Assembly (NCBI GenBank): GCA_038064455.1
Contig: JBBTTB010000005.1
Location: 21,983-85,982 of the forward strand
Length of the DNA stretch: 64,000 nt
Source: Patescibacteria group bacterium
GTDB lineage: Bacteria > Patescibacteriota > Minisyncoccia > 2-02-FULL-40-12 > GWA2-44-9
Reading direction: 5' to 3'
In this document: in pieces, positions 6,402 through 32,058 of the stretch
How the letters are laid out: each line of letters starts with the position of its first letter
Numbering within the stretch: position 1 is the stretch's first letter
Translations under genes and position numbers: made by a program
Notes under the pieces: generated by a model
Told to the model about the DNA's origin: nothing
The model's input: the letters and a program-made list of their open reading frames with translations, nothing else
The model's database searches: none

Positions 6402-6926
6402 ATGTATTCTTCCGCGCCCTCACTTCGTAGCTCGTGGCTACTGCTCGCCATCCTTTGTGCGCTTCTCTGGGGGATCTCGTTTTTAATCCCGCTTACCTAT
6501 CCCATTATATATAGCTCCCTCGCGAGTGTCATTTTGTTTGGAGGTGTAGGGTGGACGGGACGCGTGCTCGTTACTGCATGGGTATGCGAAGTGTTGTTCG
6601 GTACTCTGTTTGGAACATACATACTGCCAACACTGTGTATGGTTGCCCTGTACGCGGTGTTTAGATCAATCGTTGTCATACATCCTATTGAAGACGTGCG
6701 CGCTCCATCGTTTTCTCAAATTGGCATTGCTCTTATCGGCGCCTACGTTCTCGCACTGGCTGGTTGGAGCATTGATGCAGTTGTCGTCCACTCCCTTTCT
6801 GGAGAGGCACTTCGTGCGTGGATGCCTCTCTGGGCGCGTTGGTCATGGATGCTCGCGAGCGCGTTTATTAGCGTTTCTCTATGGTTACTCGGGGTAGCGC
6901 TGGCGCGTGCTCGTCGCTTGGGGTAG
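6402..6926 (+). CDS. mreD: rod shape-determining protein MreD (polytopic membrane protein)
   Basis: The position mreB-mreC-X-PBP2 and about 174 aa of strongly hydrophobic sequence support MreD. The start is trimmed to the ATG at 6402, immediately after the mreC stop; the listed ORF start at 6255 overlaps mreC. Confidence 0.55.
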   Translation: MYSSAPSLRSSWLLLAILCALLWGISFLIPLTYPIIYSSLASVILFGGVGWTGRVLVTAWVCEVLFGTLFGTYILPTLCMVALYAVFRSIVVIHPIEDVRAPSFSQIGIALIGAYVLALAGWSIDAVVVHSLSGEALRAWMPLWARWSWMLASAFISVSLWLLGVALARARRLG

Positions 6927-6936
6927 AGTTGCAGAT

Positions 6937-8874
6937 ATGGCTCGATGGTCGTTTTTTAAGCGTCGCAACAATGCATACGCCGTCTCTCTTGATGGCGATG
7001 ATTGGGTTGCTCCAGAAGAAACGCTTGTTGACGTGGGGAGTAGCCACGTTGATCTGGAGCGCCCAGTGGATACTCGTATTTTCGCTCTCGCACGAGGTGC
7101 GGTGTGGCTTGTCGCTCTCGCACTGGTACTTGCTTCCGGGGCTCTTGCGATACAACAACATGAAACGCTCTCTGCCGCTGCTGAGTCGAATCGCACAGTA
7201 CAGATCTCCGTGAGTCCTCCTCGCGGCGCCATTGTAGATCGCACAGGAGTTCCGCTTGTGAAAAATACCCCAAGTTTTCAAATTGCTATCGTCTCTCGCG
7301 AGCTTCCAGCGACCCCTGAAGAACGTGAGGCGCTCTTCACAACAGTCGCTTCTATTCTCAAAGAAGACCCTGCGGTGCTCGTGCCGCAACTTCTTGAACG
7401 CGCACATGCGCAGAGCGTCTTTTTTGCTGCGACGGGCGTGCCAAAAGAAGCAACGGTGCAATTCTCCCAACTTTTGGGAAATGGCGTACACGTGGTAACT
7501 ACAACGGATCGCGCATATCTCAATGGCGAGCAATTTTCAACAGTGCTGGGATATACGGGACGGGTATCGGTTACCGATCGAGAGCGCGACACATCCTATG
7601 CGTCGTCTGATCGTGTTGGTCGCGCGGGGATAGAGGCCCAATATGAGCAAGAGCTCCGTGGTTCGCACGGGAGTATCACATTTTCGCGAGGAGAAGAAAG
7701 TGTCCAAAAAGATCCCATTCCGGGACACACGGTGGTGCTTGAAATAGATGCAGATGCGCAGAAGGCACTCTATAATAGTTTATTTTCAGTCTTACGGGGC
7801 GCAGCCGTTTCTGGGGCTGCTGCAATTGTGCAAGATCCACAAACGGGCGCCGTGCTAGGCATGGTGAGCTTCCCATCATATGATAACAACATATTCGCGG
7901 ATGGTATTTCACAAGGAGAATACCAGCGCTTGTTCACGTCATCGCGCAAGCCACTCTTTAATCGCGTCATCGGCGGCACCTATAACCCTGGCTCAACCAT
8001 TAAGCCATTTATTGGCATGGCAGCAGTAGAAGAGAATATTATCCGCCCATCCGACAATATTTGGGAGTGTGTAAACATCACCATTCCTAACCCGAGCAAT
8101 CCATCACGCCCGTATGTCTTTGAAAACTGGAGACCAGAGCATGGGCCGTTTAATCTTGCGCGAGCGATCGCAACGTCGTGCAATATTTACTTCTTTACTG
8201 TTGGCGGTGGACGCGATGCATTTCAAGGGCTAGGCATTGAGCGCATAGCTTCGTATCTGCAGAGGGCATTTGCTGATAAGGTGCTGGGCATTGATCTTCC
8301 GGGTGAGGTCGCTGGCTTTGTACCAACGTCGGCGTGGAAACAAGAAAAGCGTGGTGAGCCATGGTACCAAGGTGATACGTATAACGTTTCCATCGGCCAA
8401 GGAGATCTTTCCGTCTCTCCACTATGGATTAATGCGTATGTGAGCGCCATTGCAAACGGAGGGACACTCTACCAGCCACGCGTTGCACAGCGTATCCAGT
8501 ATGGCGCCGGCACTCCAGATACCGTGTTCGCACCAACCGAGCTTGCGAAGATGCCATTCAGTAGCACAACGATCGCGGCCATGCAAAAAGCAATGCGTGA
8601 GACGGTCCTCACGGGTACGGCAAAAATACTCCAAAATCTTCCCGTCTCATCTGCCGCAAAAACAGGTACGGCGGAAGTGACGAAGCATGGAAAGATCAAC
8701 TCACTCTTCACGGCGTTCGCGCCAGCAGAAAATCCAAAGGTTGCTATTACGGTGTTGGTGGAAAGCTCAATCTACAGCGAAGGATATGCAAGCCGCACGG
8801 CCCACGCATTCTTGAAATGGTTCTTTACGCGCCCATCCCCGTCATCCCCAGCGGAACCCTTGCCATCTTTGTAA
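6937..8874 (+). CDS. mrdA: penicillin-binding protein 2 (peptidoglycan D,D-transpeptidase, elongasome)
   Basis: Transpeptidase motifs STIKPF (SxxK) and KTGTAE, an N-terminal TM anchor, and a position after mreD. The start is trimmed to the ATG at 6937. Confidence 0.8.
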   Translation: MARWSFFKRRNNAYAVSLDGDDWVAPEETLVDVGSSHVDLERPVDTRIFALARGAVWLVALALVLASGALAIQQHETLSAAAESNRTVQISVSPPRGAIVDRTGVPLVKNTPSFQIAIVSRELPATPEEREALFTTVASILKEDPAVLVPQLLERAHAQSVFFAATGVPKEATVQFSQLLGNGVHVVTTTDRAYLNGEQFSTVLGYTGRVSVTDRERDTSYASSDRVGRAGIEAQYEQELRGSHGSITFSRGEESVQKDPIPGHTVVLEIDADAQKALYNSLFSVLRGAAVSGAAAIVQDPQTGAVLGMVSFPSYDNNIFADGISQGEYQRLFTSSRKPLFNRVIGGTYNPGSTIKPFIGMAAVEENIIRPSDNIWECVNITIPNPSNPSRPYVFENWRPEHGPFNLARAIATSCNIYFFTVGGGRDAFQGLGIERIASYLQRAFADKVLGIDLPGEVAGFVPTSAWKQEKRGEPWYQGDTYNVSIGQGDLSVSPLWINAYVSAIANGGTLYQPRVAQRIQYGAGTPDTVFAPTELAKMPFSSTTIAAMQKAMRETVLTGTAKILQNLPVSSAAKTGTAEVTKHGKINSLFTAFAPAENPKVAITVLVESSIYSEGYASRTAHAFLKWFFTRPSPSSPAEPLPSL

Positions 8875-19982: not shown

Positions 19983-20016
19983 TGCGAGAAGTTCTGTGGG
20001 TGCGTATACTGGAGAT

Positions 20017-21189
20017 ATGATCAATGTCATCTTGCTGGGGATCACATCACTCCTTACGGATCTTTCCAGTGAAATGATCGTCCCGATTCTCCCGTTCCTT
20101 ATTCAATCGCTTGGTGGCGGTGGATTGGCGATCGGACTCGCGTTTGGTGTAGGCGATGCCGTTGCGGCACTCATGAAGGTGTTTTCTGGATACTGGGCAG
20201 ACCGCACAAAGCGTTTTAAAACGTTTGTATTCGTCGGCTATTTCTTTTCTGCGTTTGCAAAGTTTTTCTACCCCTTCATTTCGAGCTGGCAAAGCATCGC
20301 CATTCTCCGTCCCATTGAACGCCTTGGCAAAGGGTTTCGTGACGCACCACGCGACGCCATCGTTTCAGAGTCGGTTCCTCCAAACATGCGTGGCAAAGCA
20401 TTCGGCGTCCAGCGTGCGATGGATAGCGTCGGCGCGCTCATTGGTTCCGTGGCGGTGCTGGTGCTATTTCTCATCTTTGGACTTTCTCTCCAAACGCTCT
20501 TTTTCTTTGCCGCACTGATTGGCATTGTCGCGGTGATTCCTATTTTCTTTGTGCGCGTGCCAAGCAACCTCACGCTCTCGCGCAAGCGCATTGGATTTCG
20601 CGAACTTCCTATAAAGGCGCGTTACTTCATCGCCATCGCAACCGTATTTGCCATTGCGAACTTTAGCAACGCGTTTTTCATTCTGCGTGCGCAGGGTTTA
20701 TTTACTGACCTTTCATTCCAAGATTCGCTTTCGTTGGCGTTGGTGCTCTACATCTTCTTTGGTATTTTTGACGCCGTATTTTCCGAACCTGCAGGCGCTC
20801 TCTCTGACCAGCTTGGCCGCCGCCGCATTATTCTCACGGGCTATTTGTTGTTTAGCGTCGTGTCGCTTGGGTTTATGGCCGTGCCGTATATTGCACACAC
20901 AACCGTTTCGCAATTTTTAGTGATGCTTGTGTTCTTTGCGCTCTATGGTGTCTTCCGTGCATTCATTGATGCATCACAGCGTGCTATGGTCGCTGATCTT
21001 TCGGATCCAGGGCAACGCGCAACAGCACTAGGAACCTTTGAAGCCGCAACGGGACTTGCTGCTATTCCTGCTGGTCTCATCGCTGGATTCCTGTGGGATT
21101 TCTCTCCTGCGCTCACCTTCGCACATGGGTTTGGCTTTAGTCTTCTCGCCAGCGCGCTCTTACTCGTGTTTATCCGCGACCAGAAATAG
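20017..21189 (+). CDS. MFS transporter
   Basis: 12 predicted TM helices with an MFS loop 2-3 motif GYWADRTKRFK. Start trimmed to the ATG at 20017, which has a GGAG SD. Confidence 0.7.
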   Translation: MINVILLGITSLLTDLSSEMIVPILPFLIQSLGGGGLAIGLAFGVGDAVAALMKVFSGYWADRTKRFKTFVFVGYFFSAFAKFFYPFISSWQSIAILRPIERLGKGFRDAPRDAIVSESVPPNMRGKAFGVQRAMDSVGALIGSVAVLVLFLIFGLSLQTLFFFAALIGIVAVIPIFFVRVPSNLTLSRKRIGFRELPIKARYFIAIATVFAIANFSNAFFILRAQGLFTDLSFQDSLSLALVLYIFFGIFDAVFSEPAGALSDQLGRRRIILTGYLLFSVVSLGFMAVPYIAHTTVSQFLVMLVFFALYGVFRAFIDASQRAMVADLSDPGQRATALGTFEAATGLAAIPAGLIAGFLWDFSPALTFAHGFGFSLLASALLLVFIRDQK

Positions 21190-21762: not shown

Positions 21763-21805
21763 TCTTGTTTGAAAAACACTCATCTTTCCTGTACTATGGC
21801 CCTAT

Positions 21806-21879
21806 TGCGGGGTCGTCTAATGGTAGGACAGCGGCCTTTGAAGCCGTGAATCTTGGTTCGAGTCCAGGCCCCGCAGCCA
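21806..21879 (+). tRNA. tRNA-Gln (anticodon UUG)
   Basis: Manually folded cloverleaf. Acceptor TGCGGGG/CCCCGCA with U1:A72 and G73 as in bacterial tRNA-Gln, D-arm GTCT/GGAC, anticodon stem GCGGC/GCCGT with loop CTTTGAA, T-arm CTTGG-TTCGAGT-CCAGG and an encoded CCA. Confidence 0.8.
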
Positions 21880-22037
21880 AGTCGAGATAGGCTTTCGTGC
21901 CAGAAGGGCGGATATCCTCTCGCGCACCCCACGCCTATGTCTAAGTTTGAAAATACATAAATGTCGGAGTATAGTTGACGAGTAGTAATCACTGTCGAGA
22001 CTTCTAAATTTATAATAGCTGCAATTAAAACAGACAT

Positions 22038-24333: not shown

Positions 24334-24371
24334 TCGTTTGTGTTTCAGAGAGCTGGGCGTATACTGATGAC

Positions 24372-25031
24372 ATGATAGATACAGTTCCGCCGATTCCACC
24401 GCTGATACCGTCTCAAGCACCGTCCGACTCGGGTGGATCCAAGTACAAGCCCGTGTGGTCGTGGTTGGTTGGCATTTTGATCCCGATAGTCTTTTTTGCT
24501 TCGTGGATTGGCTTTTCTCGTCCCGGCTCACCCTTCGGAAATGGACTTACGGCGGCATACCTAGGGGCACTCACTGATATATTATTAGTATCGGCGCTAT
24601 GGCCGATGCTTATTGCGGTAAAAGTCGGTATTCCCTACATGGTTGTTGAGGCCGCCGGCTTCGGTTTGCCGTCACCGCTTGGGTTGCTCTTGAGCGGATT
24701 TGTCTGGATGCTTATCGGGAGGGGGTTATATGTGCTCTACCATTCGCGTCTTAAGATTATTTTTTGGCCCCTTATTCTTGCCGCAATTGGTGCGCTAGGA
24801 ATTGGCGCATATATCGGAACTGGAGATTTTCGTACGATAGAAAAGGCGAAAGAAACGAAAAATGTTTCATACTGCAATAGGTTTGAAGGCGAAGCGAAGG
24901 GGTATTGTCTGATTGATGTTGCGGTTGCCGCCAATGACCCGAGCATATGTGAAAACATACCCGGGTTTCAGCGTACCGCATGTTTTCGTAGTTTAGATGC
25001 GCCATACACACCCTTGCCGGGCATGAAGTAA
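24372..25031 (+). CDS. polytopic membrane protein with Cys-containing C-terminal tail, hypothetical
   Basis: 219 aa with about 5 TM helices and a C-terminus carrying C..C...C..C. Confidence 0.4.
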   Translation: MIDTVPPIPPLIPSQAPSDSGGSKYKPVWSWLVGILIPIVFFASWIGFSRPGSPFGNGLTAAYLGALTDILLVSALWPMLIAVKVGIPYMVVEAAGFGLPSPLGLLLSGFVWMLIGRGLYVLYHSRLKIIFWPLILAAIGALGIGAYIGTGDFRTIEKAKETKNVSYCNRFEGEAKGYCLIDVAVAANDPSICENIPGFQRTACFRSLDAPYTPLPGMK

Positions 25032-25134: not shown

Positions 25135-26715
25135 TTAATTCAGTTCGGCTGAACGGCGATCCTCATATCGCGTAATGCGACGACCTAAGAGAGCGGTTGT
25201 GCGACGTTCAAGTGCATTGGTAATAGCATCGTATCGCTCGTCATCCTTTTTTCCTTGAGCGGCCTGCGCGAGCTCAAGAAGCGCTTTTGCGTGCATGCGA
25301 GCCCAGCGGGCCTGCTGCTCCTGGTTCTCGTAATCAAGGCCTTTGTCGAGTTCCGCTTCCGACACTCCGGCTTCTTCTCGAGCCTTTCGGTCATGGTGCT
25401 TCCACGCTTCCAGAATTTCAGTTGTCCAGTACAGTTCTCGAGATTCGTTATCGGCATAACTATCGTATGCGTTGGCGGCACGACTGATCATGCCTCGATA
25501 GCTTAACCCTCGGCGAAGCGCGTCGCGGTGATCGGTAAATACATAGAGGTCGTCGATCCACGTTTTTTCCTCCATGTCTTCGTACTCAGGAGTACCCGAT
25601 GGTGGCAATTTCGTTTCCCGCACCTTGTCTGGAATAGGACGATCGGGGCGTTCTGGTTGGGCTGGTTTTTGGTCTTCTCCTTTTCTCCGACGTGGCAACA
25701 ACAAAGGAATGAAAAGAAGGAGAGGTACTGGTATGATCAGCGTTTCGCTCTTATCTCCTTCATAGCTTACGGTGATTTTTACCCCTCGTTTTGAGCTCAG
25801 AATTTCATCAAGGCGCCCTTTGTGTTCCAGTGGTTCATTGTTGTTATATTTACGAATGAGGTTAAATATCTTCTCAAGAGAATCAACGCCATTCTCATCC
25901 TTTGCAAGTTCTGCAAGCTCTGCCTGTTCGGATTCACTAAACTGAAGCTCTTCACCTTGCACCTGCATGGCGGCCGCTTCGAGTTGATCGGCGCTGATTC
26001 CTTTGCGGGCGAACCCTTCTCTCATCGCCTCAAGCGCATGAGAAGCGCGAAGCTCTCCGAGCGCGATATTTTCCTGATCAATGGCCTCTTGCTCTAACGT
26101 ATTCGCGCCTTTGTGTTCCGGACCCTCCGGTGAAGCCAGACCGGTTACGGCGATGCGGGTAATGCGTACATCCTGCAGTCCAGGTTGCTCGTGATGGAGC
26201 CCGTAGACTTCTTTACTCCGTGCGAATCCATAAAGCACGTCCGCGAGCTGTTTCTCCACCTCTTGATCCACGTATTGTACAAGACGTTCTTGCCCTTCAG
26301 GATCAACCGATGTTGCCGTGTCAAAGCCGCGACTGTATTCATAAGGCAAGTGAGCTGTGCGCTCCATTTCCTCTTTTATGTCTCGAGAGACTTCAATTTG
26401 GAAGGGGGCGATGAGTGACCATGGATTAAATCGAGTTTCACCCTTGTCGTCTTTGTAAAAAAATGCCAAATGACCGTCCGGCCACTTTGCTTCCCACCCT
26501 TGTTCCGCTACTGTTGTTTCGAGTTCTGCCTTATGAGTCTTTGCTTCGACGCTTCCAGCACCGCCAAGACCGGCAAACAGAGCGAGATAGGTGATTCCAG
26601 CCTGTTCGCGCATGCGTTGCGACCATAGCTTTAATCGCCTCGATTCTTGAGGCTCTTGTGTCTCAGCGGCCTCAACGTGACTAACCGGTTCATGTGAGAG
26701 AGGTGTTTTTTCCAT
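25135..26715 (-). CDS. hypothetical protein (526 aa, acidic, central TM segment)
   Basis: Long clean ORF on the minus strand with a central LIIPVPLLLFIPLLLPRRRK hydrophobic segment. No recognisable catalytic motif. Confidence 0.5.
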   Translation of the reverse strand: MEKTPLSHEPVSHVEAAETQEPQESRRLKLWSQRMREQAGITYLALFAGLGGAGSVEAKTHKAELETTVAEQGWEAKWPDGHLAFFYKDDKGETRFNPWSLIAPFQIEVSRDIKEEMERTAHLPYEYSRGFDTATSVDPEGQERLVQYVDQEVEKQLADVLYGFARSKEVYGLHHEQPGLQDVRITRIAVTGLASPEGPEHKGANTLEQEAIDQENIALGELRASHALEAMREGFARKGISADQLEAAAMQVQGEELQFSESEQAELAELAKDENGVDSLEKIFNLIRKYNNNEPLEHKGRLDEILSSKRGVKITVSYEGDKSETLIIPVPLLLFIPLLLPRRRKGEDQKPAQPERPDRPIPDKVRETKLPPSGTPEYEDMEEKTWIDDLYVFTDHRDALRRGLSYRGMISRAANAYDSYADNESRELYWTTEILEAWKHHDRKAREEAGVSEAELDKGLDYENQEQQARWARMHAKALLELAQAAQGKKDDERYDAITNALERRTTALLGRRITRYEDRRSAELN

Positions 26716-26803
26716 AACGAAAAGTATACACCTTTTTCCATGATAAAAGGAGTATTCTGTACTTAATAGTGCGGCCTACATCAAGACGCTCCCGTAGGGG
26801 ATA

Positions 26804-26832
26804 TTGACCCTTCCGATTTATTATTGTATCCT
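26804..26832 (+). promoter_or_regulatory. sigma70-like promoter upstream of the Cys-rich micro-ORF
   Basis: TTGACC at 26804..26809, a 17-nt spacer and TATCCT/TATATA. Confidence 0.35.
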
Positions 26833-26882
26833 ATATATCGATCTTTCCCCCGTACCTTTCTGGGGAGGAGGTGAGGAAGAAA

Positions 26883-26984
26883 ATGGCGCGCGACTGTTCG
26901 CACAGTGGCAAGTGCGGTACCAAGAACCACACCGGCAACAGCAGCCACGGCTGGTGCAAGTACTGCAAGAAGTGCAACAGCTGA
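26883..26984 (+). CDS. 33-aa cysteine/histidine-rich peptide MARDCSHSGKCGTKNHTGNSSHGWCKYCKKCNS
   Basis: ATG at 26883 with a GGAGGAGGTGAGG SD 5-12 nt upstream and a TGA stop at 26982. A perfect terminator follows 15 nt later. The ORF is absent from the supplied ORF track, which lists only ORFs of 60 aa or longer. Confidence 0.45.
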   Translation: MARDCSHSGKCGTKNHTGNSSHGWCKYCKKCNS

Positions 26985-26998
26985 CGGCAAGGTCGTGA

Positions 26999-27034
26999 CA
27001 TGGGGGAGGCTCGCATAGCTCCCCCATGTTTTTT
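26999..27034 (+). terminator. rho-independent terminator
   Basis: CATGGGGGAG-gctcgcata-GCTCCCCCATG followed by TTTTTT. Confidence 0.7.
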
Positions 27035-27047
27035 ACAAGGAGGCACA

Positions 27048-27277
27048 AAGTGGCTCAAGTGGGCAAGCCGTTTCACGAGCTGACGGAAAGCGAGGCGAAG
27101 AAGATCGTCAAAGCGATCGTGAGATCGTCGCACTCGGAGGAGGAAATCCGCCGGCGCCTGACGGAGGCGGGCTTCAGCGGAGCGAGTGCGCTCATCGCTG
27201 CAGACAGCTGCTGCAATGGGTTCCAGGTGATGGTTCGCTCCCCACGTGGGAAGACCATCAGCATCTCGGCTCACTAA
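27048..27277 (+). CDS. small hypothetical protein (GTG start)
   Basis: AAGGAGG SD 7 nt upstream of the GTG. About 76 aa (VAQVGKPFHELTESEAKKIVKAIV...). Confidence 0.4.
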
Positions 27278-27287
27278 GGAGGACGTC

Positions 27288-27437
27288 ATGAGCGTTCGAG
27301 AACAAGCAGAAGAAGTCGTCGAGACGCTCGACGACGCGACGTTCTTCACCGCGCTTCAGGCGGAGTGCGAAGAAACGCTCTTCCTCCTGAGGACCCGAGG
27401 ACCGAGGGGTGGAACACGCTCATGCGTGCACGCATGA
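27288..27437 (+). CDS. small acidic hypothetical protein
   Basis: TAAGGAGG SD upstream of the ATG. 49 aa (MSVREQAEEVVETLDDATFF...). Confidence 0.3.
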   Translation: MSVREQAEEVVETLDDATFFTALQAECEETLFLLRTRGPRGGTRSCVHA

Positions 27438-27547
27438 GCACTCTGCATCAGCTCACTGGAGCAGCCCTCGGCAAGAACAAGAAGTAGCACAACCTCGGTC
27501 TCAACGACGCACGGCGGCTAGCGATAGCCGCCTTTCTCTTTGCAAAA

Positions 27548-27578
27548 GCCTAGCATTCCCATGTGTGAGCGCGTAGAA
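27548..27578 (+). repeat. 31-bp promoter-like box, copy A (GCCTAGCATTCCCATGTGTGAGCGCGTAGAA)
   Basis: Near-identical to copy B at 28384..28414, 29 of 31 matching. It sits just after a terminator-like hairpin. Confidence 0.6.
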
Positions 27579-27598
27579 CGAGAGTACGCATCCGATAC

Positions 27599-27628
27599 TT
27601 GACACTGCTACTATCTTCTCTGTATAAT
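27599..27628 (+). promoter_or_regulatory. consensus sigma70 promoter (TTGACA-18-TATAAT)
   Basis: TTGACA at 27599..27604 and TATAAT at 27623..27628, about 115 bp upstream of the ATG at 27743. Confidence 0.5.
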
Positions 27629-27742
27629 ATTGTTGTTAGTGCGCACCTTACAATAAACCGAAACCGATATACCGCCGCACACTGCGGCCCCGGCCTTTCA
27701 GGCGCGGGAAGAATACCGACTTTCAGCCGGAAGGAGAACGTC

Positions 27743-28312
27743 ATGTCCAAATACGGACACCTGCCCCACAACTACTTCGAATACATCATGAATCGTCTCG
27801 GTGGCGAAGAGGGAGCCGAAGCGTTCAAGCGCGGGGATGTGATCCTGGCCCCGAACTCCCAGAAGCTTCTGCGATTGGTGGTGAGGGCGACCCCGCTCCC
27901 CGTCATCAAGGAACTCGTGGTCAAGGACATGTTCACCAGCAAGAACTCCTCGCGCGAATTCCGGAACGCGTTTTTCAACGTTGTGGAGCGAAACATCCCA
28001 GCGTCGCAGGTTCACATCATGACGCTGTTGGAGGAGGCGGATGGCCTGTCCATCGCAACCATGCTGGGAGTTCGGAGATCTGTGGTGTGGCTGTCCCACT
28101 TCGTCGACATTCTCCAGAACGACCTTCTCTTCTTCCTCACCAAGCGCGTCATGGCGTTCATCATGGACGCGAGCGGCGTGGACGTGCAGATCGTGGAGGC
28201 TTGCCGGCTGCACGGTGAGTGGTACTACGACGTCGTCTCGCTGGGCAACATGAACGTGCGGCAGAAAGGCTCCTATTTCGTGGTTTCGTCACCCGAGAGC
28301 CCGAGCGCCTAG
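27743..28312 (+). CDS. hypothetical protein (189 aa, GC-rich)
   Basis: GGAAGGAGA SD upstream of the ATG at 27743. The listed ORF start at 27599 lies inside the promoter. Confidence 0.5.
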   Translation: MSKYGHLPHNYFEYIMNRLGGEEGAEAFKRGDVILAPNSQKLLRLVVRATPLPVIKELVVKDMFTSKNSSREFRNAFFNVVERNIPASQVHIMTLLEEADGLSIATMLGVRRSVVWLSHFVDILQNDLLFFLTKRVMAFIMDASGVDVQIVEACRLHGEWYYDVVSLGNMNVRQKGSYFVVSSPESPSA

Positions 28313-28383
28313 CCGCACCGAGCTCGTCAGCCCCCAGTCCCGCTGTGGTTTCCTTCACGGACCATGGCGGGGCTTTTTGTTTT

Positions 28384-28414
28384 GCCTAGCATTCTCATGT
28401 GCGAGCGCGTAGAA
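28384..28414 (+). repeat. 31-bp promoter-like box, copy B (GCCTAGCATTCTCATGTGCGAGCGCGTAGAA)
   Basis: Second copy. It ends 12 nt before the ATG at 28427, which would give a near-leaderless mRNA if the TAGAAT acts as a -10. Confidence 0.6.
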
Positions 28415-28426
28415 TAGAGCCTATCT

Positions 28427-28774
28427 ATGTCACACGAAAAACCAATAATACCACAGCCGCCGGAGCGCGTAGAGCAAGAACCAACGCTCGCAGAGTGTCT
28501 ACTCAATGCCTTGCGCACCGAAGGACTTGTCGGAGAGCATACCCAGCAGTACATTCAAGAGTGGTGGACTGCGCGTGAAGCCCTTTCTGATGAGGGTCGT
28601 TGGGAGGCAGATCTGATTCGTGCGGGGATATTTCTTACCGCTGGGTTCATTTCTGAAGCACTTGAGGAATTTGAATCTATAGCACAGCAAGCCTACGAAG
28701 CACAGAAAGACGACATCGTTGACCGTTGCGATCAATGCATCGAGGCGATCCGCAAAGCTATCCCGAACGAATAG
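28427..28774 (+). CDS. hypothetical acidic protein (115 aa)
   Basis: Clean ORF directly after box B. A terminator follows at 28783..28810 (AGCCCCTCACGGGGCTTTTTGTT). Confidence 0.5.
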   Translation: MSHEKPIIPQPPERVEQEPTLAECLLNALRTEGLVGEHTQQYIQEWWTAREALSDEGRWEADLIRAGIFLTAGFISEALEEFESIAQQAYEAQKDDIVDRCDQCIEAIRKAIPNE

Positions 28775-28865
28775 CTACAGCCCTAAGCCCCTCACGGGGC
28801 TTTTTGTTGCTTTTCTCTAGTGCTTTTGAGAATATGAGGAATGAACAAGCCTCTTTGCTATTAGT

Positions 28866-29069
28866 ATGAGGCGAATCGTTTATATTTTAAAAATGAGTAA
28901 AACAGAGTTAAAACAACACGCCGAACAGATCGAAGTAAACCTAAAAGCATACCTGGAATTACTTGCAGAGTTAGAACATGAGAGAAAAAAGATTATTGAC
29001 GAATTCTCAGAAACTCTAAGATTGAGAAAAATCAAAGAGTTAAAAAGATCTTTATCTACTAATGGATAA
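28866..29069 (+). CDS. small hypothetical coiled-coil protein (alt start 28893)
   Basis: AT-rich ORF of 67 aa, Lys/Glu-rich. Confidence 0.3.
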   Translation: MRRIVYILKMSKTELKQHAEQIEVNLKAYLELLAELEHERKKIIDEFSETLRLRKIKELKRSLSTNG

Positions 29070-30009
29070 TCAAGAAGTAGTTCCCGCAATAAAGCCCCTG
29101 GAAGTTTCGGAACAACAATCCTTAAAAACTAAGGAAGAACTTGAGGTTTCTGATGAAAAACAGCTAGAGTTGCTTAAAGACCGAGTTCTTGGGGTTATCA
29201 GAAGCAAGGCGCAGGGAGTAAAAAAGACCATCACTGGTTCACTTGATCGTGTATTCAAGTCCTTTAATTTGTTCCGTGGGTCTATCGGGGATCGAGAAGA
29301 AAATGATTTTGATGCCGAATTCTCCTTGAATTCTGAAGAAATTGACCAATTGGCGGGGTATTTTGAAGAACAAGTCAAGGATATCACCCCGGGCTTGATT
29401 GGCTTAGGGGCTGAGAAAAAAATCTACCAACATCCCTTGCACCCAGATAGAGTAATCGGTGAGTATAACGAGGATCATCCTGATTCAGTTCGTAAAGCTA
29501 AGGCCCGTTTTTATTTTTATAAAATATTAAACACTCTTCTCCTCGATTATTTTCCAAGAATGATACTGGCGGCAGAGAAAAGGTTTGAAGCATCACGATT
29601 GGATGGGGACCCTTATAAAAAACTTCGCGACCGTCTTAGGCAAAATAGGGGTCATCTCAACCCCACCCAAATAGATCGGGTATTAGAAAAACTACATGTA
29701 ATGGAGGAGGGTTTTCGCAGAACTAGCCGGTTTAAGAAATTTCAGAATGATCTATGGTCTCTCGGTATAGCGGCGGATGCAAATAGGGTAAACTTTTTTG
29801 ATGCCACTGATGGGTTAAAATATGTGGATACTATCGATCCGTGGTTGAATAGATATAGTGACGGTGCTCTTGTACCTAATTTTAACCCAGAGCAACTCTT
29901 GCAGATAATTGAGAGCCTCCCTGATGAGCAAAGAGCGAGAACCAGAGTCTACTATGAGAGACTGGTCGGTTTGTTGACGGAAGAGAGAGAGATTACTATG
30001 CCGGCATAG
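29062..30009 (+). CDS. hypothetical protein (315 aa, low GC)
   Basis: Long ORF with no recognisable motif. It overlaps the preceding ORF by 8 nt. Confidence 0.5.
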   Translation: MDNQEVVPAIKPLEVSEQQSLKTKEELEVSDEKQLELLKDRVLGVIRSKAQGVKKTITGSLDRVFKSFNLFRGSIGDREENDFDAEFSLNSEEIDQLAGYFEEQVKDITPGLIGLGAEKKIYQHPLHPDRVIGEYNEDHPDSVRKAKARFYFYKILNTLLLDYFPRMILAAEKRFEASRLDGDPYKKLRDRLRQNRGHLNPTQIDRVLEKLHVMEEGFRRTSRFKKFQNDLWSLGIAADANRVNFFDATDGLKYVDTIDPWLNRYSDGALVPNFNPEQLLQIIESLPDEQRARTRVYYERLVGLLTEEREITMPA

Positions 30010-30282
30010 ATGCTTATAGCCCCCTAAGTGTTTATTTAGGGTCTCAATTTATCTCATTTTCCCAGATCAATGAGCCTCATTCTGCCTCTGGCTAAAGACT
30101 TAACCCTCTAGTATGCATTCTATAAATGCGATCACTAGAGTGGGTACCGCAACTGCCGCGCTCGAATCCCGAGAGGGAAACTAACCCTATCCTACGCGCC
30201 CTATGTACCCGTTGCACGGGGCGTCTGTTTTTTAGTGGTATATAATGAATGTAACGTTTCATGATAGGCACTATTGATGTAT

Positions 30283-30323
30283 GGGTTAACTTGTGTTAAC
30301 CTTATAGGAGCGATAGGGTTAAC
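30283..30323 (+). promoter_or_regulatory. three GGTTAAC-containing repeats (two as inverted pair) upstream of HTH gene
   Basis: GGGTTAAC-ttgt-GTTAACC followed by GGGTTAAC, a likely operator for the adjacent HTH protein. Confidence 0.4.
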
Positions 30324-30330
30324 GAAACAT

Positions 30331-30612
30331 ATGGAGCAAAACACTACAAAAAAGACATTCCTCTCTGTCCCAGAATTGGCCAAAATGCTTGGCATTAGCC
30401 GTATTGCGGCTTTTCGTAAGGTTAAAAAGGGACACATTCCAGCCCACAAAATTGGGCGTATGTACGTTATTTCCATGGAAGATGCGCTCGCGTTTGTGAA
30501 CGAGGGGCAGTCTGACGTGCTCACGGAACCTAAAAAAGACGAAATTAAAAAGGCAGTTGCTCGAGTTGTCCAAGAATACGGCGAAACACTCAAGCTTTTA
30601 GGGAAAGAATAA
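30331..30612 (+). CDS. helix-turn-helix (excisionase/MerR-type HTH_17) DNA-binding protein, putative antitoxin/regulator
   Basis: VPELAKMLGISRIAAFRKVKKGHIPAHKIGRMYVI matches excisionase-family HTH. The start is uncertain, between 30274 and 30331. The stop lies 1 nt before the Doc gene. Confidence 0.5.
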   Translation: MEQNTTKKTFLSVPELAKMLGISRIAAFRKVKKGHIPAHKIGRMYVISMEDALAFVNEGQSDVLTEPKKDEIKKAVARVVQEYGETLKLLGKE

Positions 30613-30613
30613 T

Positions 30614-31039
30614 ATGAAGCTGAAACGGCTCACCCTCACTGATATAGAGTACGTCGCACATAGACTTGCACAAGAAACGATGTCGTGGCGTGAACCTATC
30701 CCTGACTTCGGCACACGATACTCAAACGCGCTTGAGCGGTGCATTGATGCGCCGTTCCAATCCTTTGGTGGTAAGCAGTTATATCCCGGCCTTGTGAGGA
30801 AGGCTTCGATACTATTTTATTTGATGATCAAAAATCATCCGTTTCAGAACGGAAATAAAAGATTAGCGATGACGACGCTCTTCTTTTTTCTCTTTCGGAA
30901 TAAGAAGTGGATGAAAGTTGATACACAAGAACTGTATAATTTTGCAGTCTGGGTTGCGAAAAGCAATGCGAAGGTGAGGGCCGACACCATACGAGCGGTA
31001 GAAACATTTCTCGGTAGCTATATAGTTGATATAGAATAA
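30614..31039 (+). CDS. Doc (death-on-curing)/Fic-fold toxin family protein
   Basis: HPFQNGNKRLAMT matches the Doc variant of the Fic motif (HxFx[DN]GNKR). 141 aa. Confidence 0.6.
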   Translation: MKLKRLTLTDIEYVAHRLAQETMSWREPIPDFGTRYSNALERCIDAPFQSFGGKQLYPGLVRKASILFYLMIKNHPFQNGNKRLAMTTLFFFLFRNKKWMKVDTQELYNFAVWVAKSNAKVRADTIRAVETFLGSYIVDIE

Positions 31040-31044
31040 ACGCG

Positions 31045-32058
31045 ATGAAACGCCTTTCTTATGGTGTTATAGCGTTGGTGCTCGCTATGCTCGTGGTGGG
31101 CGGCGTTTCGCTTTTGAGTGACAGGAGCCAGACCATCACCAACGGAACTGAAACGAGATCACCATTTTCGTTCCCCGATATTCCTTCTTTCTTTTCCAGC
31201 AAAGAGGGAAGCATGATCTTTGTGGGAGATATCATGCTCTCGCGTTCCGTGGGCATTCGCATGGCGAAAGAAAATGATTACACCTTTCCATTCCTGCACG
31301 CCGCCGCGTTTCTCCAAGATGCGGATATCACCTTCGCGAATCTTGAGAACCCAGTCTCTGCTCGGGGAAAGAACGTGGGGAGCATCTACTCGTTCCGCGC
31401 TGATCCAAAAACAATCGAAGGGCTTGTGCTCGCGGGCTTTGATGTAGTCTCTATCGCGAATAACCATATGTGGGACTACGGGCGCGAAGCGTTCCTTGAT
31501 ACGCTCTCGCATCTCACACAGGCCGGCATTGATTTCGTGGGCGGCGGGAACAACGCCGCAGAGGCAGAGCGGCCCGTGGTGCGAGACGTGCAGGGCACGC
31601 GCGTGGCGTTTTTGGCCTATACCGAATTTCTGCAGAGTGCGGTGGCGGGGGAGGCATCGGCGGGCATCAGCCGGTGGGATCCCGAGCGCATGGCCGCCGC
31701 TATTGCCAGCGCAAAGCAGGAGAATAATATCGTGGTGGTTTCATTGCACTGGGGCGAGGAATACAAAACACAGCACAACCAACAGCAGGAGACCATTGCG
31801 AAGGCGGCGATTGATGCGGGGGCGGATCTGGTCATCGGGCACCATCCGCACGTGGTGCAAGAGGTGGAACGCTACAAAGATGGCTGGATAGCCTACAGCC
31901 TTGGTAATTTTATATTTGATCAGTATTTTTCAGAAGCAACGATGCGGGGCCTTGTGCTGAAGGTGCGCATCAAAGATGGGAAAGTGCAGAGCGTAGAGGA
32001 ATATGATAGCGCGCTCTCAAAAGAGTTTCAGGTGCGCATCACCGCACGTAAGGAATAG
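31045..32058 (+). CDS. CapA/PgsA-family metallophosphoesterase-like protein (poly-gamma-glutamate/capsule-type), membrane anchored
   Basis: N-terminal TM, then IFVGDIML...NLENP, GFDVVSIANNH and GHHPH motifs typical of the CapA family. Confidence 0.65.
   Translation: MKRLSYGVIALVLAMLVVGGVSLLSDRSQTITNGTETRSPFSFPDIPSFFSSKEGSMIFVGDIMLSRSVGIRMAKENDYTFPFLHAAAFLQDADITFANLENPVSARGKNVGSIYSFRADPKTIEGLVLAGFDVVSIANNHMWDYGREAFLDTLSHLTQAGIDFVGGGNNAAEAERPVVRDVQGTRVAFLAYTEFLQSAVAGEASAGISRWDPERMAAAIASAKQENNIVVVSLHWGEEYKTQHNQQQETIAKAAIDAGADLVIGHHPHVVQEVERYKDGWIAYSLGNFIFDQYFSEATMRGLVLKVRIKDGKVQSVEEYDSALSKEFQVRITARKE

Follow-up and report, generated by a model that had tools for sequence, protein, structure and literature searches.

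Why does a nearly identical 31-bp sequence stand twice within one chromosomal island, each time upstream of a gene, when the two genes are unrelated? The question is raised by a 64,000-nucleotide chromosomal stretch (referred to throughout as the window) of a Patescibacteria/Paceibacteria genome from Hainich groundwater (0.1-um filter fraction), in which the 31-bp element, here called the box, precedes gene A with its upstream copy (box A) and gene B with its downstream copy (box B). A sequence-only reading of this DNA had taken the copies for two parallel promoters of co-regulated cassette genes. Comparison with two related genomes gives a different answer: the copies are the flanking repeats of an insertion/deletion difference (indel), and the locus is a neat if rather commonplace example of probable promoter reuse, at a site prone to gene insertion. 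As to what the box does and how it came to be doubled, we lean, if only slightly, towards a lineage-specific compact promoter with a very short leader, which would have been duplicated when the unit carrying gene A inserted itself behind the -10 element and ahead of gene B. The features on which the argument turns are as follows (window coordinates).

27513..27542, + strand: terminator 2, a stem-loop (CGGCGGCTAGCGATAGCCGCC, stem 27513-27532) followed by a T-run; directly 5' of box A and kept together with the box in the two relatives, L002 and L003
27548..27578, + strand: box A, the upstream copy, with the junction to the insert after its position 31
27579..28383, + strand: putatively inserted segment of 805 bp, not in L002, with a box on either side and a foreign composition
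27599..27628, + strand: sigma-70 promoter of gene A, TTGACA-18-TATAAT, 12 of 12 consensus bases
27663..27742, + strand: conserved three-hairpin 5' leader of gene A, ending in an AGGAG ribosome-binding site
27743..28312, + strand: gene A, 189 aa, GC content at third codon positions (GC3) of 0.82
28336..28383, + strand: terminator 3, a 16-bp stem (28336-28374) followed by a T-run; the end of the inserted unit
28384..28415, + strand: box B with the final T of the -10 element, the intact copy and presumed promoter of gene B
28416..28426, + strand: pre-ATG segment AGAGCCTATCT, 11 nt, without a Shine-Dalgarno sequence
28427..28774, + strand: gene B, 115 aa, predicted five-helix TPR-like bundle

Both copies of the box lie on the + strand (box A, GCCTAGCATTCCCATGTGTGAGCGCGTAGAA, at 27548-27578; box B, GCCTAGCATTCTCATGTGCGAGCGCGTAGAA, at 28384-28414) and agree at 29 of their 31 bases, the differences being at position 12 (C/T) and position 19 (T/C), precisely as they had been described from the sequence; about 2e-6 pairs of such similarity are expected by chance in 64 kb. 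The starts given for the two downstream genes (27743 and 28427) proved correct as well, and a hairpin with a T-run is indeed present before each copy, the coordinates of the first being about 10 nt off. A third copy was not found in the window at up to three mismatches, and 100 shuffles yielded none. Our statements on the distribution of the box cover about 100 kb from three genomes (the window, L002 and L003), where all five known copies sit in one island and a profile of the five retrieved no further copy; a scan of viral contigs with a degenerate box pattern gave no match, and DUF2975 neighbours used as anchors led only to unrelated contexts, none of them with the box. On both strands all copies fold no better than shuffled sequence (z +0.4 to +1.3), and the box is thus most likely read as duplex DNA; no dyad symmetry was found in it. 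A separate observation concerns the 11-mer GAGCGCGTAGA (box positions 20-30), which occurs a third time, exactly, at 28463-28473 inside gene B, 60 nt past its copy in box B (0.04 occurrences expected in the window).

The two relatives that carry the argument were both fetched via their gene B homologs: L002 is another Hainich genome (H51-bin004_1), and L003 is a complete 615-kb genome (CP129474.1). The order of genes outside the variable island is common to the window and both relatives, at 75-88% nucleotide identity. L002 presents the same small genes followed by terminator 2 (CGGCGGCTAGCGATAGCCGCC), one box (GTCTAGCATTCCCATTGGTGAGCGCGTAGAA), the segment TAGAGCCTATCT and the ATG of gene B; the window flank to the left of box A matches the left flank of this arrangement, and the flank to the right of box B matches its right flank. 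Since a single box stands in L002 between the same flanks, window positions 27579-28383 (805 bp) are an indel with exact junctions and with the box as its 31-bp direct repeat. The segment is a complete transcription unit, in which a consensus promoter and a leader of 110 nt precede gene A and terminator 3 closes the unit; gene A was found in neither L002 nor L003, and only remote relatives of it were found elsewhere. Paralogy of the downstream genes, which the sequence-only reading had named as the counter-case to its own proposal, was not found: gene A and gene B show no similarity to each other.

The same box heads further, unrelated genes in L003. Its first copy there (6747-6777, 27 of 31 matches to box A) comes after the stop codon of a Fic gene and 12 nt before a DUF2177 gene, the start of which reads TAGAAT-AAAACTTATCC-ATG, with the 11-nt spacing seen before gene B and without a Shine-Dalgarno sequence; AAAACTTATCC and AGAGCCTATCT are identical at 7 of 11 positions, and all of the differences are transitions. 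The second copy (7860-7890, 25 of 31 matches, with TAGGCT as the -10 element) comes after terminator 2 and stands before a gene for a 677-aa peptidase S9; the stop codon of this gene runs straight into AAGCCTATCT-ATG, the start of gene B. The downstream genes (gene A, gene B, DUF2177, peptidase S9) differ among relatives while the box is kept, which is what the sequence-only reading had proposed to look for. The upstream neighbours are not homologous either, being a frameshifted small gene with terminator 2 for box A, gene A with terminator 3 for box B and the Fic stop codon for the first L003 copy; similarity starts at box position 1-2 in all five copies whatever sequence is upstream, and reaches the ATG in three of them. 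The segment AGAGCCTATCT before gene B is identical in L002, and 9 of its 11 bases are kept before gene B in L003. Taken together, box and leader match at 33-38 of 43 positions between genomes, and the box is conserved over all 31 nt in the three genomes, spacer included, better than nearby coding sequence; positions 16-17 read GT in boxes A and B, TG in L002, and GG and AT in L003. Aligned with the single-box arrangement, L003 ceases to be homologous past about box position 33 and becomes so again at about position 35, which points to a second, unrelated insertion within 2-3 nt of the insertion point in the window; this peptidase S9 insertion came without duplication of the box.

A promoter is suggested by two features of the box: together with the following 12 nt it takes up all of the 43 nt that separate the terminator tail from the gene B ATG in the window and in L002, and its geometry is kept before the unrelated DUF2177 gene of L003. 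Including the next T, box B (28384-28415) reads TAGCAT-17-TAGAAT; 11 nt separate the end of TAGAAT (28415) from the gene B ATG (28427). The spacing behind the near-leaderless mRNA proposed for this copy is thus present in the sequence, with TAGAAT close to the ATG and no Shine-Dalgarno sequence. A -10 element of the form TAnnnT is present as TAGAAT in box B, in L002 and in the first L003 box, and as TAGGCT in the second L003 box. Box A departs from this form: the insert junction falls after TAGAA, hence its hexamer is TAGAAC, and the last T of the sigma-70 -10 element is nearly invariant. Another 21 nt past box A comes the TTGACA-18-TATAAT promoter, a canonical one as had been said. The idea that box A heads gene A has accordingly been abandoned, as the junction breaks its -10 element and gene A has a consensus promoter of its own, along with a leader of atypical length and a ribosome-binding site (GGAAGGAG) that is strong. 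The notation TAGCAT-17-TAGAA(T/C) for both copies survives in part: the geometry is reused before DUF2177 and fills the gap from terminator to ATG, but the -10 element of copy A is broken and TAGCAT is a poor -35 element, to which we return below.

Starts of this kind seem to be the rule in the genome, most genes having no Shine-Dalgarno sequence and many a TAnnnT 6-11 nt ahead of the start: among the gene starts surveyed, a Shine-Dalgarno-like motif was seen at 6 of 37 and TAnnnT ending 6-10 nt before the start codon at 10 of 37, as in TATACT-6-ATG (20017 and 24372) or TAGAAT-7-ATG (31045). Beside these counts we noted a 20-nt stretch, GCGTATACTG..GA.ATGAT, at 20002-20021 and 24357-24376 (17 of 20 positions identical), in which TATACT stands 6 nt ahead of the start codon; the two membrane-protein genes concerned, one for an MFS transporter and one for a 219-aa protein, are unrelated, and it may represent a second case of promoter reuse, there with a truly leaderless geometry. 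The trinucleotide GCG before the -10 element was also tried as a lineage-specific extended -10, an idea given up when a control trinucleotide reached an equal score.

The composition of the segment is foreign. GC3 amounts to 0.82 in gene A, compared with 0.47 in gene B and about 0.5 in housekeeping genes; gene A is compositionally foreign and gene B native. The GC-rich cassette of the sequence-only reading therefore shrinks to two genes, gene A and the gene at 27050-27277 (0.78), which account for the excess, while gene B does not belong to it. On the reading towards which we lean, the box, the next T and the 11 nt up to the ATG would form a compact promoter, with TAGCAT as a -35-like element, a 17-nt spacer and TAGAAT as the -10 element; transcription would start about 7 nt after TAGAAT, giving a 4-5 nt leader and a near-leaderless mRNA. 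The native job of the box would be to restart transcription of gene B right after the upstream terminator. A horizontally acquired 805-bp unit (own promoter, structured leader, gene A and terminator) would then have entered between the -10 element and the start of gene B, and the same insertion event would have duplicated the 31-bp target. Box B, left intact, would still drive gene B behind the new terminator, and box A, having lost the final T of its -10 element, would probably be a relic, redundant beside the gene A promoter. Because gene A is absent from both relatives and GT at positions 16-17 is confined to boxes A and B, a gain in the lineage of the window is favoured; box A is the window copy closest to the boxes of the relatives.

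Three routes could have led to the present arrangement: (i) staggered breaks 31 bp apart whose gaps were repaired once the insert was in place, (ii) integration of a box-carrying circle through one crossover, and (iii) loss in the relatives via box-by-box recombination. No recombinase, integrase, transposase, reverse transcriptase or Cas1 was found among the approximately 50 open reading frames (ORFs) of the window or in precomputed Pfam annotation (+/-10 kb). The insert begins with CGAGAGTACG and ends in GGGGCTTTTTGTTTT, and no pair of terminal inverted repeats joins 27579 and 28383; phage and plasmid collections contained nothing like the box-cassette-box unit.

Several points weigh against the compact promoter and its duplication by insertion. 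The -35 match is poor (2 of 6 consensus positions for TAGCAT at 17 nt, and the consensus promoter scan did not report the box), whereas other promoter-like sites of the genome carry TTGnnn there. Conservation of the full 31 nt, spacer included, goes beyond what a plain sigma-70 promoter needs and may mean that a regulator or a non-standard sigma factor is involved. The 11 nt from the -10 element to the ATG are at the long end for leaderless genes; promoter activity as such is inferred from sequence comparison. Ordinary transposition duplicates far less of its target than 31 bp, and no enzyme for such a duplication was found. Both derived substitutions sit in box B, the supposed functional copy, and the sequence examined for the box is no larger than the 100 kb mentioned above.

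Among the alternatives, the one that survives best, while still unlikely, is an ancestor that already had two boxes: genes A and B would have lain in tandem, each behind its own box promoter; L002 would then have lost gene A by homologous recombination between the boxes, and in L003 it would have been lost or replaced independently. Deletion between 31-bp direct repeats is simple (RecA-mediated or by slippage) and leaves exactly the L002 structure, and several box copies coexist in L003. However, the foreign gene A carries its own consensus promoter, which would be needless behind a working box, and its absence from both relatives requires two losses as opposed to one gain. Boxes A and B are also more alike (29 of 31) than either is to the box of L002 (28 for box A, 26 for box B), yet this difference is not significant, and match counts of 29 vs. 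28 are too slight a basis for telling gain from loss.

We give slightly less credence to the box as an attachment site, in which a small circular cassette (gene A and one box) would have been integrated by a single crossover within the box through a recombinase encoded elsewhere, the boxes being the cassette boundaries of a variable array; integron cassettes and mobilisable elements without an integrase of their own would be the models for this. Direct repeats do enclose a single-gene unit of integron-cassette size, and L002 resembles an empty site; at both positions where the copies differ (12 and 19), box A keeps the ancestral base and box B has the derived one, which fits a crossover within positions 20-31. 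The peptidase S9 insertion at almost the same point, the two boxes of L003, and duplicated tRNA-Gln ends in the same island of the relatives (see below) can be cited in its support too. On the other side stand the lack of integrase, transposase, reverse transcriptase and Cas1 genes among the ORFs and annotations just described, the lack of dyad symmetry or a hairpin in the box, the fact that the peptidase S9 insertion has no second box, and the content between the two L003 boxes, which is not a simple cassette. A foreign donor box would, moreover, already need the window-specific GT at positions 16-17. Finally, the other loci of the gene A family have neither flanking repeats nor the box, which makes the repeat a property of this site and not of its cargo.

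Next in order, and again improbable in our judgement, the box could be, as the sequence-only reading had suggested, the site of a regulator or of a dedicated alternative sigma factor, controlling a small regulon of island genes and duplicated for the co-regulation of genes A and B. The conservation of all 31 nt in three genomes would be accounted for, as would the weak -35 element, which might call for an activator or another sigma factor, and the 11-mer GAGCGCGTAGA is present a third time downstream of box B. This third copy is, however, not conserved in gene B of L002 or L003. A complete consensus promoter intervenes between box A and gene A, where the -10 element of box A itself is broken; the box lacks dyad symmetry, no sigma factor or regulator gene adjoins it, and there are only five copies in the three genomes, all in one island.

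More speculative than any of these, and in our estimate improbable in its turn, is the idea that the box is the recombination site of an undescribed Paceibacteria cassette-exchange system, which would insert self-contained, promoter-bearing single-gene units close to a promoter and duplicate about 31 bp in doing so; this could proceed by an att-like crossover or by staggered cuts 31 bp apart, such as Cas1-type integrases make. If real, it would account for the presence, in two lineages, of different insertions within the same 2-3 nt. An assembly or chimera artefact joining non-contiguous sequences, suggested by a repeat length near common k-mer sizes and by the metagenomic source of the assembly, is effectively refuted, as the copies differ at two positions and share no exact word longer than 12 nt, a length at which a k-mer assembler would not be misled, gene B has the same neighbours on six contigs assembled from different samples, and an NCBI genome of the same organism annotates gene A beside gene B (AAB463_00970 and AAB463_00975).

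What kind of cargo is gene A? Its + strand frame shows GC3 > GC1 > GC2 as in real genes, a pattern that the ORF antisense to it lacks; together with the conserved N-terminus of its family, this codon-position signal identifies the + strand ORF from 27743 as the real gene. Annotations conflict at this point: one gene caller takes the antisense 171-aa ORF at 27698-28213 (- strand), and NCBI starts gene A at Met16. A full-HMMER search listed 33 proteins, namely the NCBI entry of gene A itself and 32 remote relatives, with lengths of 93-353 aa and one outlier of 2,413 aa; at least one relative comes from Candidatus Paceibacterota. The family shares a conserved N-terminus (MSKYGH.PHN.FE...GGEE; MSKYGHRPHNWFEAIVNKLGGEE.AEAFLRG; MSKYGHRPHNWFE...GGEE) and has divergent C-termini. 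Neither gene A nor its relatives have a match in Pfam, NCBIfam or PHROGs, no relatives were found on viral contigs, and single-sequence structure prediction for gene A reached a predicted local distance difference test score (pLDDT) of 40, too low for the model to be of use.

Remote relatives of gene A in five other genomes have leaders homologous to its own, with three hairpins up to the ribosome-binding site. The aligned segments, each directly 5' of the ribosome-binding site, are the following.

Window, 27663-27742: leader of gene A
L010, 192-273: leader homolog
L011, 5930-6000: leader homolog
L012, 642-723: leader homolog
L013, 2917-3000: leader homolog
L016, 1040-1112: leader homolog

In this alignment, which comprises six sequences only, 92% of cells are paired and compensatory changes occur in 7 of 18 pairs, both values exceeding those of shuffled and slid controls. 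Folded as a single sequence, the leader of gene A shows no significant gain in stability over shuffled sequence, and Rfam gave no match over 26700-28900, leader included, at E up to 1. We therefore regard the family leader as a candidate for a new cis-regulatory RNA motif.

One family member has a further peculiarity. In L011, the 3' end of the gene A relative (6502-6603) is repeated 570 nt downstream (7072-7173) over 102 nt with 7 differences, all at adenines of the downstream copy, and a bAvd-like gene adjoins the repeat pair. The pair bears the signature of a template/variable repeat pair of a diversity-generating retroelement (DGR), which makes at least one member of the gene A family a DGR target. 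The window contains no template repeat of the gene A 3' end, and no reverse transcriptase was found there.

Gene B is known from only three genomes: 5.8 billion proteins were searched, and the only two homologs were those of L002 and L003 (77% and 71% identity); a collection search of genomes with the gene B alignment found the L002 contig only. Its AlphaFold model is confident (pLDDT 90) and consists of a five-helix TPR-like bundle with a disordered N-terminus of 20 residues. A structure search gave only generic TPR-like helical matches, all with E > 0.1, and Pfam, NCBIfam and PHROGs gave none.

The wider surroundings of the box are those of a core chromosomal region with a variable island in it. 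Housekeeping neighbours include genes for ribosome recycling factor, MreB/MreC, PBP2, GreA, aminoacyl-tRNA synthetases, DNA polymerase III subunits and Obg. The island extends from tRNA-Gln (21806-21879, the sole tRNA gene and the sole Rfam match in a scan of the whole window) to a PGA_cap gene at 31045; it holds mostly unannotated genes, and its content differs strongly from that of L002 and L003. In these relatives the tRNA-Gln gene and its flank are partly duplicated 250-300 bp from the intact gene (L003 4995-5026; L002 8146-8178; compare window 21785-21891): in L003 the 3' end is repeated, with an apparent minus-strand tRNA in between, and in L002 the 5' part. These duplications may be traces of integration events at the island edge. 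At the other side of the box locus lies an AT-rich segment (28810-31039, 41-45% GC) that is not in L002 and contains two unannotated genes (67 and 315 aa) and an HTH_17/Fic-Doc toxin-antitoxin pair (30274-31039); as judged by this comparison, it appears to be another insertion into the same variable island.

The small genes upstream of box A have no match in Pfam, NCBIfam or PHROGs. One of them, missed by gene finders, encodes a 33-aa cysteine-rich peptide (26883-26984; MARDCSHSGKCGTKNHTGNSSHGWCKYCKKCNS) with its own promoter and leader. It has 92% identity to its L003 counterpart and no match in NCBIfam or PHROGs, and the 42-nt terminator region behind it (26992-27033) is 100% identical in the three genomes, which are otherwise 75-88% identical. 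The small gene at 27288-27487 has a frameshift caused by a 13-nt deletion, with the ORF stopping at 27437; its L002 counterpart is intact (71 aa, L002 9690-9905), and the window copy is probably a pseudogene. Neither this gene nor the one at 27050-27277 (75 aa, GC3 0.78) is present in L003; a mere 7 nt separate terminators 1 and 2 there.

Overall, the locus provides a testable candidate for a promoter with near-leaderless geometry in the ultra-small bacteria of the candidate phyla radiation (CPR)/Patescibacteria, in which transcription start and gene uptake are little understood. L002 and the window make up a clean before/after pair for a foreign gene that, as we interpret it, landed at the very boundary of a promoter and the gene it serves; duplication of the promoter would have kept both genes expressed. 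The insertion hot spot, a small one, is common to two lineages. Should the duplication be enzymatic and not accidental, it would represent a new way of building variable gene arrays. The conserved leader and the small protein family, including a DGR target, offer further testable material for CPR biology.

A side-by-side comparison with known systems reveals partial agreement with several of them. Integron cassettes resemble the insert in that a repeated element delimits units of one gene and about 0.8 kb, and in the variable gene content of the region among relatives; we have rejected this assignment because the box folds no attC hairpin, no intI was found, and the insert carries its own promoter with all 12 consensus bases and a terminator, and the box copies are nearly identical, unlike the diverse attC sites. 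Insertion by an insertion sequence, a miniature inverted-repeat transposable element or a transposon was rejected as well, given that there are no terminal inverted repeats, that no transposase was found, and that the duplication measures 31 bp vs. the usual 2-15 bp. Duplication of att sites (Campbell-type, integrase-mediated or homologous) would also produce a direct repeat of tens of base pairs around a discrete insert, with a single-copy empty site as in L002; here, in contrast, no integrase was found in or near the insert, the insert comprises 805 bp and one gene, and the repeat is a promoter region and not the end of a tRNA gene.

Leaderless or short-leader sigma-70-type promoters are known from Actinobacteria, Deinococcus and others. 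The box differs from them in its spacing of 11 nt rather than 6-7 nt, from which a leader of 4-5 nt would be expected, and in its non-canonical -35 element. The box pair itself was rejected as a DGR repeat pair, its differences being C/T and T/C and no reverse transcriptase having been found. DGRs are abundant in CPR bacteria (Roux et al., 2021, PMC8144416), and the gene A family member in L011 resembles their variable proteins in having a C-terminal variable repeat and a template repeat that differs only at template adenines, whereas the window has neither a template repeat nor a reverse transcriptase.

The closest parallel in concept is provided by putative mobile promoters, defined as homologous promoter sequences upstream of non-homologous genes, with a criterion of at least 50 nt at at least 80% identity (Matus-Garcia, Nijveen and van Passel, 2012, PMC3488235). 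Like these, the box is found upstream of non-homologous genes and downstream of non-homologous neighbours, its family is small, and similarity ends at or a few nt before the start codon. Unlike them, the two window copies are direct repeats around one inserted gene and not dispersed, all copies are confined to one island, and the box measures 31 nt at 94% identity, or 43 nt with its leader. Falling short of the 50-nt minimum, the box is not filed here as a putative mobile promoter, though the concept fits.

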